Assembly (NCBI GenBank): GCA_937941575.1
Contig: CALDHH010000075.1
Coordinates: 1 to 49,180, forward strand
Length of the DNA: 49,180 nucleotides
From: an uncultured Alphaproteobacteria bacterium
Lineage (GTDB): Bacteria; Pseudomonadota; Alphaproteobacteria; Micavibrionales; CSBR16-224
Direction: 5' to 3'
The notes below the pieces were generated by a model. That model did not search any database and was not told the DNA's origin. It saw only the letters and a list, made by a program, of their open reading frames with translations. Both the position numbers and the translations under genes were made by a program. Below, piece after piece: positions 22,812 through 27,633 of the stretch (positions are counted from its first letter, which is position 1; every line of letters starts with the position of its first letter).

Positions 22812-22994
22812 ATGGATATGGATATGAATTTACCAGCAATTGCAAGACTGACTGAGGCTAATGCCCCTGGTCTATTAAAATCTTACATTGATACTCATCC
22901 AGTTAAAGCTCATGAAAACACAATTGCACCCGAAGTTGTTGCACAAGCAACTCCAAAAATGGATAGCAATCCTGGTGGATCTCAAGGTAAATAA
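22812..22994 (+). CDS. Small hypothetical protein (60 aa)
   Basis: AGGAG lies 7 nt upstream of the ATG. Composition is non-repetitive and it ends in PGGSQGK. No known motif. Confidence 0.5.
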   Translation: MDMDMNLPAIARLTEANAPGLLKSYIDTHPVKAHENTIAPEVVAQATPKMDSNPGGSQGK

Positions 22995-23024
22995 TTTTAG
23001 AATAAAGTTTTTAAGGATAAAGAA

Positions 23025-23333
23025 ATGTCAGAGAACACTCTTCCACTTGCATCAGAATATGAAGTATTTGTAAATAAACAGAATGCTTTGGCATTTTTTA
23101 TGCATCGTCACCCATCATTGGATGGCGCAGAAGATGCAGGCCCATTTTGGTTTGCCATTCATAATGATGATACTCTGGTTGCTGGTACTGAAGAAAATTA
23201 CGCAATCTTTCCGAATGTATCAAAGGAAGTAATTGATATTGCAAAACAAAGAAAGATTGTAATGATTGTTGAATTTGAGAATCAGAAAGCAATACGTTGC
23301 ACACCTTGTTATTTATCAAGTGTATCTGCATAA
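23025..23333 (+). CDS. Hypothetical protein (102 aa) sharing a WFA..N.DT motif with the neighbouring giant protein
   Basis: AAGGA lies 7 nt upstream of the ATG. Residues 42-52 WFAIHNDDTLV match residues 707-717 WFAENNGDTAV of the 1174-aa protein at 7 of 11 positions. Confidence 0.6.
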   Translation: MSENTLPLASEYEVFVNKQNALAFFMHRHPSLDGAEDAGPFWFAIHNDDTLVAGTEENYAIFPNVSKEVIDIAKQRKIVMIVEFENQKAIRCTPCYLSSVSA

Positions 23334-23409
23334 AAAAATATATAATAGATTCAAGTAAATAGAGATTATTTCAATTTTTAACATAAAATTGTTTGCATAA
23401 ATAATTATT

Positions 23410-23429
23410 TGTGATATGTTATTATCACA
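23410..23429 (+). promoter_or_regulatory. Candidate operator: TGTGATA-N6-TATCACA inverted repeat upstream of the 1174-aa gene
   Basis: Perfect 7-bp arms that end 39 nt before ATG 23468. Confidence 0.35.
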
Positions 23430-23467
23430 TGAATACATATTTAGGTAATATACAGATTGGTTAAAAC

Positions 23468-26400
23468 ATGAGCTTTTTTGATAAATTAAAAGAAATTGAA
23501 AATCTAGAATCCAAAGGTAAATTAAACTTTTGGAAGGAAATTAAGGCACAGCTTGAACATAAACTGTCCAAATTAGAGGCTCAGACGCATTCTGTATCCG
23601 AATGGATTGATGCAAGCGAAAAAGATATTGTTATTGCATATAATGAATTATATAGCAGCCTAAGCCAAAGAGACGAAGAAGCAATAAAAACCCAATTATC
23701 TAATATGGGTGATATTGCTGGAATTGTATTACAAATACCGATTAGACAAGCCGGCGTTAATATGAGCTTTTCTCATTTAATTACCATTAATTTTGGCCCA
23801 GAATCAGAGGTTAGCAAGTTAGCAGCAGATGTAAAACTTGGAATTCCAGAGACCGTTTATACTAACCTACTCGGCTTTGAAGATGAAGAGCTTGAAAAGG
23901 AAGCGCCTAGCGAAGAGAAAACTAGTTTCTGGGGTAAAATATCTGGTAAAGATCAAGAAAGAATTGAAAATGAGCTAGAGCTTGCGAAAAAAGAGCTGTT
24001 ATCATTACAAACAGAAGTACCATATTATGTTGATTCCTTCTGTGACTGGTTAGAATCCGGTCTTGACATGCATAATGATTTTGACACTTCTGATGAAGAA
24101 AATGAAAAAAGACTTAAATCTTACCAAGATCCTGATTACATGATTAATGCTGCTGAACAAGATTTCAATGAAACAATCTCAACATTTTCTGAGAGAGTTT
24201 TTGATATCTCGCAAGATTATGCTCAGATATTAAGAAATGTAGAGAGCAAAAACCCATCTAAGATTATTGATTCACTAACCAAAATAAAATCTACGAAATA
24301 TGCTGATAAAGCTTTATCTTGGGTATTTGAAGAGCTTAATGTAACTAGCTTACATGAATTAGCCTTGGATAAATTCGAAGATAATCAAATTAGATCTAAA
24401 CTATTTGAAGAAGCAATGAGCGGAGATGTATTAGCAACTCCGATTGAATTTCAAGATAGCAAAAGAATGGCTAAACTATTTGATGAAATATTCAATGAAT
24501 GCCTAAAAACTGATGACCCAATGCCGTTATCAACTTTATTTATCATGATCAATAATAATTCCTTTGTGGAGAGCTTTGATGATGATAAAGAAAAAGTATT
24601 ACAAAATTTACTGCTTAAACTAGATGATAAAACTGGCAAATCTTACTTTGAGATTGTGGATAATTTAGAAGATAAAGAATTAAAAACTAAATTATTTGAA
24701 TTATTTAGTGCATCACTTGGCTTTACAGGAATAACAAATTCATCCTTCGATAACAAAAGCATCCCTAAATTATATATTGATTTAAAAGAAGCTATTGCTA
24801 ATAAAGATTCTAAATCATTACAAGATATAATCATACTTGCCAAAGAACTAAATGTTCAAGACGAAGTAATTGCTTTTTATGGGTTACTAAATAAAGAACA
24901 ATCAATCCCTATGCATGCCCTATCTAGTTTTGATAACAAAGAAGGCTGTCAGATATTTAACAATATGGCTTATCATGGATATGAAATATTCTTAAAAAAT
25001 GATACTGATGAGTATAAGATAGAGGCATTAGAAAAAGCGATGTTAAATGTGGGTACTGGTATTAGTACCTCTATATTAACACCTGAACTAGAAGCTTTAA
25101 AGAATATCTTACAATATATCCAAGAAGAAAAAGGCAGTGAATTTATCAAAGACATCATAATATCTAGCAATATTATCGAGCACAGCTTCAAGAAATTTGA
25201 AATGGATGATCGGAATAGCTTTTTATCAGTAATATTAAACTCTTTTAATAATATCGAAAAATCAAATATATTATCTAGAGCAAGCCTTGATATACAAGAT
25301 ACCGATCTTAAGAAAAACATCCAAGATGTTGCAAATCTATATTCTGGCTATTACCAAAGCTTAAACGATCGCCTGATTATTAACCCTGAAAATCTAGGTA
25401 ATATCTGGCACGCAAACCAAAATCTTATGAATGCATCAAAATATAGCTCTTTTAACCAAAAAATTGGTGAAGAAGAAATGGATATCAATATTGCTGCTGA
25501 ATATTTAAGTGCTTTATACAAAAATGATGATTTCGTAGTTTTTGGAACTGATGAGATAACAAATAAAAACCACATAAAATATGCTTGGTTTGCTGAGAAT
25601 AATGGTGATACCGCAGTTCACTTTATTGTTGGTGATAATAAAACATCAACATCAATGGATGCGGGAGATGCCGAGCTAACTATAGGTGGATTAATAGAGT
25701 GTAATAGCTATGTTTATGTTGGTGGCTATGCCATTAATCTTGATAATATTGGCTATCTGAATATTGATAAGCAATCTGATCAGTTGAATATATTAGATAA
25801 TGCAGATGAAATTGAAACTATCGATGTATCACCAGAAGAAATATCCTATTTATTAGAAATAATCAAAAATCATCCTGATTTTATAATCAACGAAGGTAAC
25901 GACCAAGCGGTTAATACAAGCAAAGTAGATCTATTAATTAATAACGAGCACACCGATGAAGTTTCTTTCGTAATAGAGAATAATTACTTTGGTTCCGAGT
26001 TTGCGGAAATTGATGAAGATGGTCTAAAGACAGAATATATTGATGGTTTTATGAATAGCGATAAATCTAACCTATTAGAAGAATTCGAAAATTCCAACCA
26101 ACATATCAAAATTGGCGATAAATGCATAAATATTGATAATCTTAGCTATACAAATTATGATGAAGAAAGTGATACCTTAGAATTAATAATTAGTAATGAG
26201 AGAGTATTAATTCATGTTGAAGATTTCGCAGCAGTTGAAGAAATAAATGCCAAATTAAAAGATCACGGCTTCATCACTAATGAAATCCAAGCAATTAAAC
26301 CAGAAAAAACAGCAAATATCTGGTTTACATCAAATGATGATGGTGAATTCATTGCTTGTTTAATGCCGAATAAAAGCGATAAAAGCGATCAAATAGTCTA

Positions 26401-26992
26401 TATGCAGATTGATGATATAGAAGAGACTAGTAATAAAATCCTTGCCGTTGGTAAAAAAGAGGGATTCTTTATTGTTAATAATGAATTACTAAACTTTAAC
26501 AAACTATCTTCTATTGCGCTTAACAAAGATGTTAACTTGCTTGCTCAAACTATAAAATTACAAATATCTGCCGGTAGCTCAAAAACTGAGCTAGCGATGA
26601 GCTATGATGATTATCAAGATCTAATTAAAGGCATAGCAGATTTAGGTAGCATTAAGAATGGTAATTCACATGAGAAAATTTCAGACCTTCATGACACCTT
26701 ATCAGCAATTGGTAATAATACCCTTAAAAAAGCAAGCAATACTGGTAGAAAAACTTTATTGAAGACTTTGAGAGAGAATAACCAAGAAGATCCACATCGT
26801 ACATTTAGGATTTGCCTTGATAATCTGCGTCAAAGTGATGTTACAAATGATTTTACCGCATATAAAGACGATTTAGTTCATTCAAATGATAACCGAACCA
26901 AGCCTGAAGCTAGCCTTCATTCTAATTTCTTATCCGAGAATTCAGTTAAAGCTAGAACTACTGCAAAGAAGAACAAAGGTTTTAAGCTCTAA
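23468..26992 (+). CDS. Giant acidic hypothetical protein (1174 aa) with three C-terminal ~120-aa modules and a basic tail
   Basis: Long uninterrupted ORF. I found no Walker A, HExxH or other catalytic motif. Residues ~703-1062 form three divergent repeats (WF..N.D ... INLDN/INIDN/LNFNK ... HPDFI/DHGFI/ADLGSI). The C-terminus is Lys/Arg-rich. Confidence 0.8.
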   Translation: MSFFDKLKEIENLESKGKLNFWKEIKAQLEHKLSKLEAQTHSVSEWIDASEKDIVIAYNELYSSLSQRDEEAIKTQLSNMGDIAGIVLQIPIRQAGVNMSFSHLITINFGPESEVSKLAADVKLGIPETVYTNLLGFEDEELEKEAPSEEKTSFWGKISGKDQERIENELELAKKELLSLQTEVPYYVDSFCDWLESGLDMHNDFDTSDEENEKRLKSYQDPDYMINAAEQDFNETISTFSERVFDISQDYAQILRNVESKNPSKIIDSLTKIKSTKYADKALSWVFEELNVTSLHELALDKFEDNQIRSKLFEEAMSGDVLATPIEFQDSKRMAKLFDEIFNECLKTDDPMPLSTLFIMINNNSFVESFDDDKEKVLQNLLLKLDDKTGKSYFEIVDNLEDKELKTKLFELFSASLGFTGITNSSFDNKSIPKLYIDLKEAIANKDSKSLQDIIILAKELNVQDEVIAFYGLLNKEQSIPMHALSSFDNKEGCQIFNNMAYHGYEIFLKNDTDEYKIEALEKAMLNVGTGISTSILTPELEALKNILQYIQEEKGSEFIKDIIISSNIIEHSFKKFEMDDRNSFLSVILNSFNNIEKSNILSRASLDIQDTDLKKNIQDVANLYSGYYQSLNDRLIINPENLGNIWHANQNLMNASKYSSFNQKIGEEEMDINIAAEYLSALYKNDDFVVFGTDEITNKNHIKYAWFAENNGDTAVHFIVGDNKTSTSMDAGDAELTIGGLIECNSYVYVGGYAINLDNIGYLNIDKQSDQLNILDNADEIETIDVSPEEISYLLEIIKNHPDFIINEGNDQAVNTSKVDLLINNEHTDEVSFVIENNYFGSEFAEIDEDGLKTEYIDGFMNSDKSNLLEEFENSNQHIKIGDKCINIDNLSYTNYDEESDTLELIISNERVLIHVEDFAAVEEINAKLKDHGFITNEIQAIKPEKTANIWFTSNDDGEFIACLMPNKSDKSDQIVYMQIDDIEETSNKILAVGKKEGFFIVNNELLNFNKLSSIALNKDVNLLAQTIKLQISAGSSKTELAMSYDDYQDLIKGIADLGSIKNGNSHEKISDLHDTLSAIGNNTLKKASNTGRKTLLKTLRENNQEDPHRTFRICLDNLRQSDVTNDFTAYKDDLVHSNDNRTKPEASLHSNFLSENSVKARTTAKKNKGFKL

Positions 26993-26994
26993 AT

Positions 26995-27453
26995 CTAACC
27001 CAATAATTCAGTTGGAATAAGAAATTCGATCTTATCACGATTGGGGAATAATAATTTCCTAACGTAAATTGCTTTTTTATGCAGAGATCGTAATGATTTT
27101 GTATCAAATGAATTTTTTAGCATTATGCTTTTTAAAAAATCTTGATTGATCTCTAATCTACTTAAGAAGTCTTGATTTCTTTTATGTTTTTCTAAAACTT
27201 CTAACCTGGCATATATCCTTGGATTATGGGCTCCCTCGACCATGAATTTTGATCCCCATTTCAGGTAATCTCCATTGCCATCGCCAATGAAATCAAGCAA
27301 TGCTGCAAAATCAATTTCATCTACATCGCCATTTAATGGCTTTGATATTTGATCTTTATCGACACCAATATCTTTTATTATTTTTTCCAGCACATCATCT
27401 GATGCAACCACTTGCTGGTAATCTTCCGATTGAAATTTTGATATTTCTGACAT
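26995..27453 (-). CDS. Hypothetical protein (152 aa), convergent with the giant ORF
   Basis: Acidic N-terminal half and basic helical C-terminal half. Its stop is 2 nt from the stop of the 1174-aa gene. No known motif. Confidence 0.55.
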   Translation of the reverse strand: MSEISKFQSEDYQQVVASDDVLEKIIKDIGVDKDQISKPLNGDVDEIDFAALLDFIGDGNGDYLKWGSKFMVEGAHNPRIYARLEVLEKHKRNQDFLSRLEINQDFLKSIMLKNSFDTKSLRSLHKKAIYVRKLLFPNRDKIEFLIPTELLG

Positions 27454-27552
27454 CTCTATTTATATATCCAATGTTAATTTGATAATTGATAATAACATAT
27501 ATTATAAGCGTTTCCAAATATACTGGGTAAATATTATCAATCAATATAAAAA

Positions 27553-27582
27553 AAGAGCTCACCTAAAGATAGGCAAGCTCTT
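27553..27582 (-). terminator. Rho-independent terminator of groES-groEL
   Basis: AAGAGCT ... AGCTCTT is a 7-bp stem with inner CCT/AGG pairs. On the minus strand it is followed by a T-run (complement of the A-run at 27548-27552). It lies ~50 nt after the groEL stop. Confidence 0.7.
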
Positions 27583-27633
27583 TAATTTATATTTGCAATC
27601 TATAGGCTAGATTGGCTGAAATATAGAATGATA

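Follow-up and report, generated by a model that had tools for sequence, protein, structure and literature searches.

The stretch of DNA analyzed here, referred to below as the window, comprises 49,180 nucleotides of contig CALDHH010000075.1 (C75 in our numbering) from the assembly GCA_937941575.1, an uncultured alphaproteobacterium of the order Micavibrionales. The assembly totals 1.96 Mb in 196 contigs at ~33% GC. Between a gene for an acyl-CoA dehydrogenase (762 amino acids, aa) and groEL/groES, the window carries four genes encoding proteins of 60, 102, 1174, and 152 aa; the 1174-aa protein, hereafter the giant protein, is the main subject of this study.

The four genes and their reality

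All four open reading frames (ORFs) occupy the positions given in the original prediction, which had been made from the letters of the sequence, and its finer readings were equally accurate. The Shine-Dalgarno sites of the 60- and 102-aa genes, AGGAG and AAGGA, each stand 7 nt before the ATG, and only 2 nt separate the stop codon of the giant gene (TAA, 26990–26992) from that of the convergent 152-aa gene (CTA/TAG, 26995–26997). A log-odds score of codon usage, with 572 long ORFs of this genome as the training set, came to 0.43 for the 60-aa gene, 0.26 for the 102-aa gene, 0.28 for the giant gene and 0.25 for the 152-aa gene. Windows taken from true genes reach 0.30 ± 0.08 on this scale; antisense ORFs average 0.03, with their 95th percentile at 0.17. 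Because all four values exceed that percentile, the 152-aa gene included, all four ORFs look real. In the public annotation the 60-, 152-, and 1174-aa proteins are called genes, and the 102-aa protein is present in the protein collection that we searched. Scans of the four proteins against Pfam, NCBIfam, PHROG, and PADLOC matched no model, in line with the earlier statement that none has an assignable motif. The best explanation of the locus is that three unrelated units, namely the giant gene, the 60- plus 102-aa gene pair, and the 152-aa gene, lie side by side in this genus (Table 1).

Table 1. Features of the four-gene stretch and its borders, in window coordinates.
Feature	Position	Strand	Basis
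60-aa gene, small partner of the 102-aa gene	22812..22994	+	AGGAG Shine-Dalgarno site, coding score
102-aa gene, conserved small-protein family (EYEVF..N..A..FF, GPF, EFE, RCTPCY)	23025..23333	+	homologues
Promoter-like site TTAACA-16-AATAAT, 5' of the giant gene	23378..23405	+	consensus match only
Palindrome TGTGATA-N6-TATCACA, between the promoter-like site and the giant-gene ATG	23410..23429	.	sequence reading
Giant gene (1174 aa)	23468..26992	+	ORF
Giant residues 1–360, conserved helical N-domain	23468..24547	+	conservation, AlphaFold2
Giant residues 361–626, helical repeat (solenoid) region	24548..25345	+	AlphaFold2, Foldseek
Giant residues 627–1025, seven tandem ~59-aa beta5+helix LytTR-like modules (predicted)	25346..26542	+	AlphaFold2, hhalign, Foldseek
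Giant residues 1026–1174 plus stop, basic tail ending ...KARTTAKKNKGFKL	26543..26992	+	model confidence (pLDDT), isoelectric point
152-aa orphan gene, convergent with the giant gene	26995..27453	-	coding score
Promoter-like sites for the 152-aa gene	27544-27489	-	consensus-type scan
Terminator-like hairpin after groEL, 14-bp stem plus T run	27552..27583	-	separates the groESL transcript from the 152-aa gene

A giant protein family in two sister families

As judged from sequence searches, the giant protein represents an unannotated family confined to two sister families of this Micavibrio-like order, the family of the present genome (f1) and a second one (f8). A six-frame search of 40 relatives recovered open frames of 1074–1314 aa in 7/8 genomes of f1 and 6/6 of f8, and none in the six other families represented among them. 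When a profile of the family was run over 300 genomes of the order, it matched 8/8 genomes of f1 and 34/42 of f8; elsewhere in the order there was no full match and just three weak ones, limited to the repeats, in family f6. In an exhaustive search with HMMER, 58 clusters, nearly all of 1070–1260 aa, were retrieved from 1.84 billion cluster representatives. Members overall are ~1070–1300 aa long, and this genome has a single copy of the gene. The description of the four genes as ORFans thus stands for the 152-aa gene only, relatives having been found for the giant, 102-aa, and 60-aa genes. Remote homology to a housekeeping family, named beforehand as a refutation of the original prediction, was not found for the giant protein.

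Sequence conservation within the family is low. Homologues are 15–27% identical to the query. Residues 1–360 are best conserved, with a mean pairwise identity of 0.25; the value falls to 0.18–0.19 in the middle part and the repeats and to 0.14 in the tail. W46, P127, a YYxDSFxDW motif (186–194), D232, and Y251 are among the conserved positions. Between f1 and f8 the giant protein is 18–25% identical, compared with 50–59% for the neighboring 102-aa protein. Within genus g26 the giant gene was matched in 4/12 genomes, and since five of the eight genomes without it are 93–100% complete, the gene can evidently be lost. In relatives the giant gene was not found in synteny with other genes of the window, and the f1 genomes show no shared synteny either. 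In f8, and at a metagenomic locus of 40% GC (L045), the gene lies between a divergent mscL and a convergent operon encoding an extracytoplasmic function (ECF) sigma factor, an anti-sigma factor, and a Metal_resist protein, a stable arrangement indicating that the gene is vertically inherited as part of the chromosome and does not sit on an island.

Variants of the protein also occur. Two homologues from genus g4 carry an ankyrin-repeat insert, and no ankyrin (Ank) match was obtained in the giant protein of the window. A ~420-aa paralogue consisting of the N-domain alone is encoded at L070:4403-5623 (minus strand) and in four other g23/g26 genomes; its neighbors, among them an HbpS-like protein, an AAA_33 kinase, and a hybrid histidine kinase, gave no hint of function. 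Literature on Micavibrio or Micavibrionaceae with type IV secretion, type IVB secretion systems (T4BSSs), or ankyrin contained nothing about the giant family.

In composition the giant protein favors D, E, N, and S, and it has little R (1.6%, vs. 4.1% genome-wide). As had been noted from the sequence, an acidic body (isoelectric point, pI, 4.2–4.7) is joined to a basic C-terminus, with a pI of 4.2 for the repeat region (family median 5.2) and of 9.2 for the last 149 aa. The reported absence of a transmembrane segment and of a nucleotide-binding motif likewise holds, with a maximum 19-residue Kyte-Doolittle mean of 1.07, no hydrophobic segment and no Walker A motif.

An AlphaFold2 model of the protein, built on 25 family members, reached a mean predicted local distance difference test score (pLDDT) of 64.5 and a predicted template modeling score of 0.41. 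Residues 1–626 are modeled as all-helical, a solenoid of ~620 aa, with pLDDT ~55–82 in residues 361–626; residues 627–1025 form seven successive units, each of about five strands plus one helix (pLDDT ~65–85); and residues 1026–1174 fall below a pLDDT of 50. Self-comparison of the repeat region by hhalign gave off-diagonal matches (E 1.7e-5 to 1e-3) at shifts of ~60, 118, 177, and 248, and therefore points to a tandem repeat of ~59 aa; hidden Markov models (HMMs) of single modules match the other modules in register, weakly. For the N-terminal half, the best whole-model matches by Foldseek against the PDB were to helical repeats of the ARM/HEAT type (importin-alpha and similar alpha-solenoids). 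At E-values of 0.02–0.1 and template modeling (TM) scores of 0.1–0.27, these indicate a generic fold class and not homology, and no counterpart of the YYxDSFxDW motif was identified.

For the repeat region, Foldseek returned the LytTR domains of ComE (4cbv_A, probability 1.00) and of AgrA (4g4k_B, probability 1.00, TM-score 0.63 on AgrA), the latter superposing on the giant repeats with a root-mean-square deviation of 4.5 over 116 columns. The LytTR domain of AgrA and ComE is a DNA-binding fold. At the sequence level, the Pfam LytTR model (PF04397; AgrA, ComE, AlgR) matched 0/20 of the family repeat regions examined, even at E ≤ 5, and did not match the whole protein; profile searches of the giant family and of its repeat region against PDB sequences yielded nothing significant. 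The family profile does match an 804-aa protein from the f6 genome G199 (L067:3199-5613) at E 6e-8, and Pfam LytTR recognizes the same protein at E 5e-8 (33 bits), the two matched stretches overlapping only partly. With a match in fold and a sequence link that is only indirect, we describe the modeled units as LytTR-like and do not class the protein as a member of the LytTR family. The differences from a canonical LytTR domain are substantial: ~59-aa units in a seven-fold array vs. one domain of ~100 aa, an acidic instead of a basic character, and no receiver.

The f6 protein belongs to a group of 470–800-aa proteins in that family built solely from the ~59-aa module (F..I.D..[IV]N...[VL]..W...), encoded at L068:4280-5707 (P0181, 475 aa), L067:3199-5613, and L069:3515-4933. 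The profile of the giant family hits P0181 as well. Apart from the L067 protein, which passes Pfam LytTR, none of them matches a Pfam model. Other proteins with the repeat module were not found in the present genome.

These comparisons raise the question of whether the giant protein could be a LytTR-type transcription regulator with multiple DNA-binding domains, which we consider highly improbable. The Foldseek probabilities for AgrA and ComE and the transitive sequence link through the f6 protein would favor such a role; it is opposed by the failure of Pfam LytTR in all 20 members, by the Pfam scan, which detected no receiver, sensor, or other domain in the giant protein, and by the acidity of the module region, which makes it less likely that the modules bind DNA. 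We also know of no LytTR regulator with a comparable size and solenoid. Whatever its function, a LytTR-like fold arrayed as a seven-fold acidic tandem repeat would lie outside the known use of the domain.

Basic tails, ankyrin proteins, and Dot/Icm genes

The tail of the giant protein is conserved in charge and not in sequence. All 48 full-length representatives have a basic tail after the repeats, with a median pI of 9.6 and a median net charge of +5 over the last 40 aa, although with 14% identity this is the least conserved part of the family. The protein of the window ends in ...KARTTAKKNKGFKL, which places F at position −3 (GFKL).

Screening this genome for acidic proteins with basic ends uncovered a large set of ~200–320-aa ORFs, many of them arrayed in tandem on short contigs, ending in ...AKKPKIxGLKI or near variants. 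In total, ~60 ORFs end in ...[KR]xx[KR]x[IP][KR]IxG-hydrophobic-K[ILKR]-COOH. They are mostly 200–320 aa long and lie in tandem arrays that break the assembly (contigs C115, C122, and C159, L072-L074, as well as C137, C157, C33, C134, C179, and C49), and 8/8 of those scanned are ankyrin-repeat proteins. Between 93 and 159 Ank_2 matches were counted in each of three relatives (G003, G031, and G035), where the ankyrin proteins, like the giant proteins of those lineages, have basic C-terminal tails rich in Pro and Gly. A terminal pattern covering both the giant and the ankyrin ends, written after both had been seen, matched 43 ORF ends vs. 3.1 expected, but 29 of the 43 belong to one ankyrin superfamily and few are therefore independent. 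On a strict end-anchored matrix the giant end ranks 46 of 3167; an HMM built from 27 columns of the ankyrin tails did not find the giant protein. We regard the resemblance between the two kinds of ends as suggestive, not decisive.

The same genome encodes parts of a Dot/Icm-type T4BSS, including DotM (DotM_C), a DotL-like coupling protein (TraG-D_C), DotH/IcmK, DotI/IcmL, and DotD, on contigs C13 (L071:6502-10797), C132, and C142. DotM_C was detected in 37/41 genomes of the order, and T4BSS parts were present in every genome checked that bears the giant gene; in the four f1/f8 genomes where DotM_C gave no match, DotH and DotI were nevertheless found. For Micavibrio aeruginosavorus, the genome paper of 2011 reported the absence of type IV secretion (PMC3189940). 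On contig C13 (L071:120-3975), terminase, tail-tube-chaperone-like, and portal genes resembling those of gene transfer agents or phages lie within a few kb of dotL/dotM, with an integrase and a DUF6387 gene on the other side.

Our preferred reading, to which we assign a probability of about 0.4, is that the giant protein may be a clade-specific translocated interaction scaffold, a substrate of the Dot/Icm-type machine that is recognized by its basic tail. We infer that the protein would be exported through the bacterium's T4BSS, that the tail with its hydrophobic residue at −3 (...KKNKGFKL) would act as the recognition signal, and that the acidic body of solenoid and repeats would engage targets inside a recipient cell. 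The lack of a Sec signal and of transmembrane segments, fast effector-like evolution, patchy presence in g26, and absent synteny in f1 are all consistent with export. In these Dot/Icm-encoding genomes, the basic end of the giant protein appears to be of the same kind as the ends of the many ankyrin proteins of the lineage. The guess in the original prediction of a secreted effector or a scaffold thus survives on indirect grounds, namely the Dot/Icm parts, the ankyrin family with its similar basic end, and the two members with ankyrin inserts.

Dot/Icm effectors of Legionella and Coxiella, ankyrin-repeat effectors included, offer one parallel for this reading: the giant protein is likewise large, modular, and lineage-specific, lacks a Sec signal, and ends in a predicted disordered stretch that carries a hydrophobic residue at −3, and its own genome holds both Dot/Icm parts and an expanded ankyrin family. 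It differs from them in its strongly basic tail without a Glu-rich block, in being single-copy, syntenic, and conserved more widely than most effectors, and in coming from an alphaproteobacterium of the Micavibrio type. A second comparison is with substrates of VirB/D4 (type IVA) systems, such as VirE2 and VirF of Agrobacterium and the Beps of Bartonella, which have positively charged C-terminal signals; the coupling protein DotL is a relative of VirD4. The giant protein shares with these substrates a net-positive, predicted unstructured end on an acidic protein. Neither a BID domain nor the R-x7-R-x-R-x-R motif was seen in it, however, and the machine encoded here is of type IVB.

Several observations weigh against export by this route. 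The giant gene never adjoins dot/icm genes, and since the T4BSS is order-wide (37/41) and the giant family occurs in two families only, their co-occurrence is uninformative. The net charge of +4 in the last 40 aa of the window protein reaches no higher than the 77th percentile of this Lys-rich genome, and its last 30 aa contain no Glu-rich block of the kind found in Legionella signals. The giant end agrees only moderately with the ankyrin tail, within the top 1.5% on the matrix above; it lacks the PKI core of that tail, and its spacing is two residues shorter. Finally, a single-copy gene of constant product length, with stable housekeeping synteny in f8 and at L045 (mscL, ECF-sigma operon), looks more like a core cellular component.

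These last features are accommodated by the main alternative, possible though doubtful, in which the giant protein is a scaffold or regulator that never leaves the cytoplasm; its solenoid and array would organize partners or nucleic acid, and its tail would attach to DNA, RNA, polyphosphate, or the acidic lipids of membranes. Near-universal presence of one copy in both families, a fixed length and architecture, the mscL/ECF-sigma arrangement shared by f8 and L045, the absence of an export signal of a validated type, and the DNA-binding nature of the LytTR fold all suit such a protein. Less easily reconciled with it are the strongly acidic repeat region (pI 4.2; family median 5.2), a poor fit for modules that bind DNA, the several near-complete g26 genomes without a match, the fast evolution with no fixed partner gene, and the ankyrin inserts in two members.

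It is quite improbable that the giant protein is surface-associated or released by another route (type I secretion or lysis), as an adhesin or a structural part of an attachment site. It is large, acidic, repeat-containing, and without a Sec signal, and type I secretion and large RTX-like proteins have been reported for Micavibrio (PMC3189940). Against this, we found no RTX or other calcium-binding repeats, no Pfam matches, and no adjacent transporter genes, and the predicted folds (solenoid, LytTR-like) are of an intracellular type. A Lys/Pro-rich basic end is also unlike type I secretion signals.

The preferred reading of a translocated scaffold can be taken one step further, though only tentatively and as something that we think unlikely to hold in full: the giant family might be a conserved “core” Dot/Icm substrate that carries an acidic LytTR-derived array, a DNA-binding fold re-used for protein or ligand binding, into prey or host, with the adjacent gene pair serving a second conserved function of the clade. 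Bacteria of the Micavibrio type are known to prey on other bacteria by attaching to them. In cultured species the giant protein, being near-universal, single-copy, unannotated, and 1100–1300 aa long, is a concrete candidate for knock-out or tagging.

The conserved gene pair, the orphan gene, and local signals

The 60- and 102-aa genes constitute an independent, strongly conserved unit of small acidic proteins that adjoins the giant gene only in this genus. We recovered 121 homologues of the 102-aa protein (P0005-P0123 among them) at 39–83% identity, all named “hypothetical.” The family has 27 invariant columns, including EYEVF.N, GPF, EFE, and RCTPCY, the C-terminal CxxC being invariant. The gene was detected in 7/8 genomes of f1, 40/42 of f8, and 0/250 elsewhere in the order, usually together with a paralogue of 25–30% identity. 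At every locus inspected, a gene for a 55–62-aa protein homologous to the 60-aa protein of the window lies 20–45 nt upstream of the 102-aa homologue. Identity to the 60-aa protein is 64% at L056, ~50% at L057/L059, and 28–35% at Micavibrio-type loci, with A9, R12, A18, T28, P30, and P54 invariant. These conserved upstream homologues identify the 60-aa ORF as a real gene that forms a conserved pair with the 102-aa gene and, together with coding-like codon usage, bear out the earlier suspicion that both small genes are real.

An AlphaFold2 model of the 102-aa protein is predicted with high confidence (pLDDT 90.7) in a b5-a-b2 layout. No fold neighbor was found for it in the PDB (best E 0.15, TM-score 0.24), and the family profile produced nothing significant against PDB sequences, leaving a strongly conserved small protein with a confident model and no solved structural neighbor. 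The idea that it is a relative or echo of the giant repeat motif was ruled out by an hhalign profile comparison (probability 0.1%).

In genomes of the Micavibrio type, nrdA/nrdB are upstream of the pair, with variable genes in between (ankyrin genes at one locus), and the pair is followed by phoH, usually a hydrolase gene, and then dotL/dotM on the other strand ~10 kb away. Only in this genome and at L056, the nearest relative, does it stand directly before the giant gene, whose product at L056 has an N-terminus 51% identical to that of the window protein.

The proposal that the four genes form one lineage-specific system, in which the small proteins might be chaperones or adaptors for the giant protein, is accordingly very improbable. 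The order of a 59-aa gene, the 102-aa gene, and the giant gene is kept at L056, the pair and the giant family share their f1 plus f8 distribution, and both small proteins share the acidic character of secretion chaperones. Apart from this nearest relative, though, the pair and the giant gene are far apart or on other contigs in every genome compared; five g26 genomes of 93–100% completeness keep the pair without the giant gene; shared ancestry alone may account for the shared distribution; the 102-aa and giant profiles are unrelated in the comparison given above; and the 152-aa gene has no relatives.

The 152-aa gene, as far as sequence comparison reaches, is an orphan at the species level and the only true orphan of the four. 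No relatives were found in 40 genomes and 96 fetched loci (878 kb), and a phmmer search against the PDB gave chance matches alone, with no family match. Because a strong terminator-like hairpin follows groEL and the gene has promoter-like sites of its own, it is probably transcribed separately.

Upstream of the giant gene, the promoter-like site agrees with the consensus at 10/12 positions, a consensus match only, and the block TTTTAACATAAAAT..TTTGCATAA is kept at L056. The adjoining palindrome is perfect in the window; its right arm is not conserved at L056, and an operator role for it is therefore unsupported. At the other end of the giant gene, where its stop codon and that of the 152-aa gene (26990-26997) are 2 nt apart, there is no terminator, and the 3' ends of the two convergent transcripts must therefore overlap.

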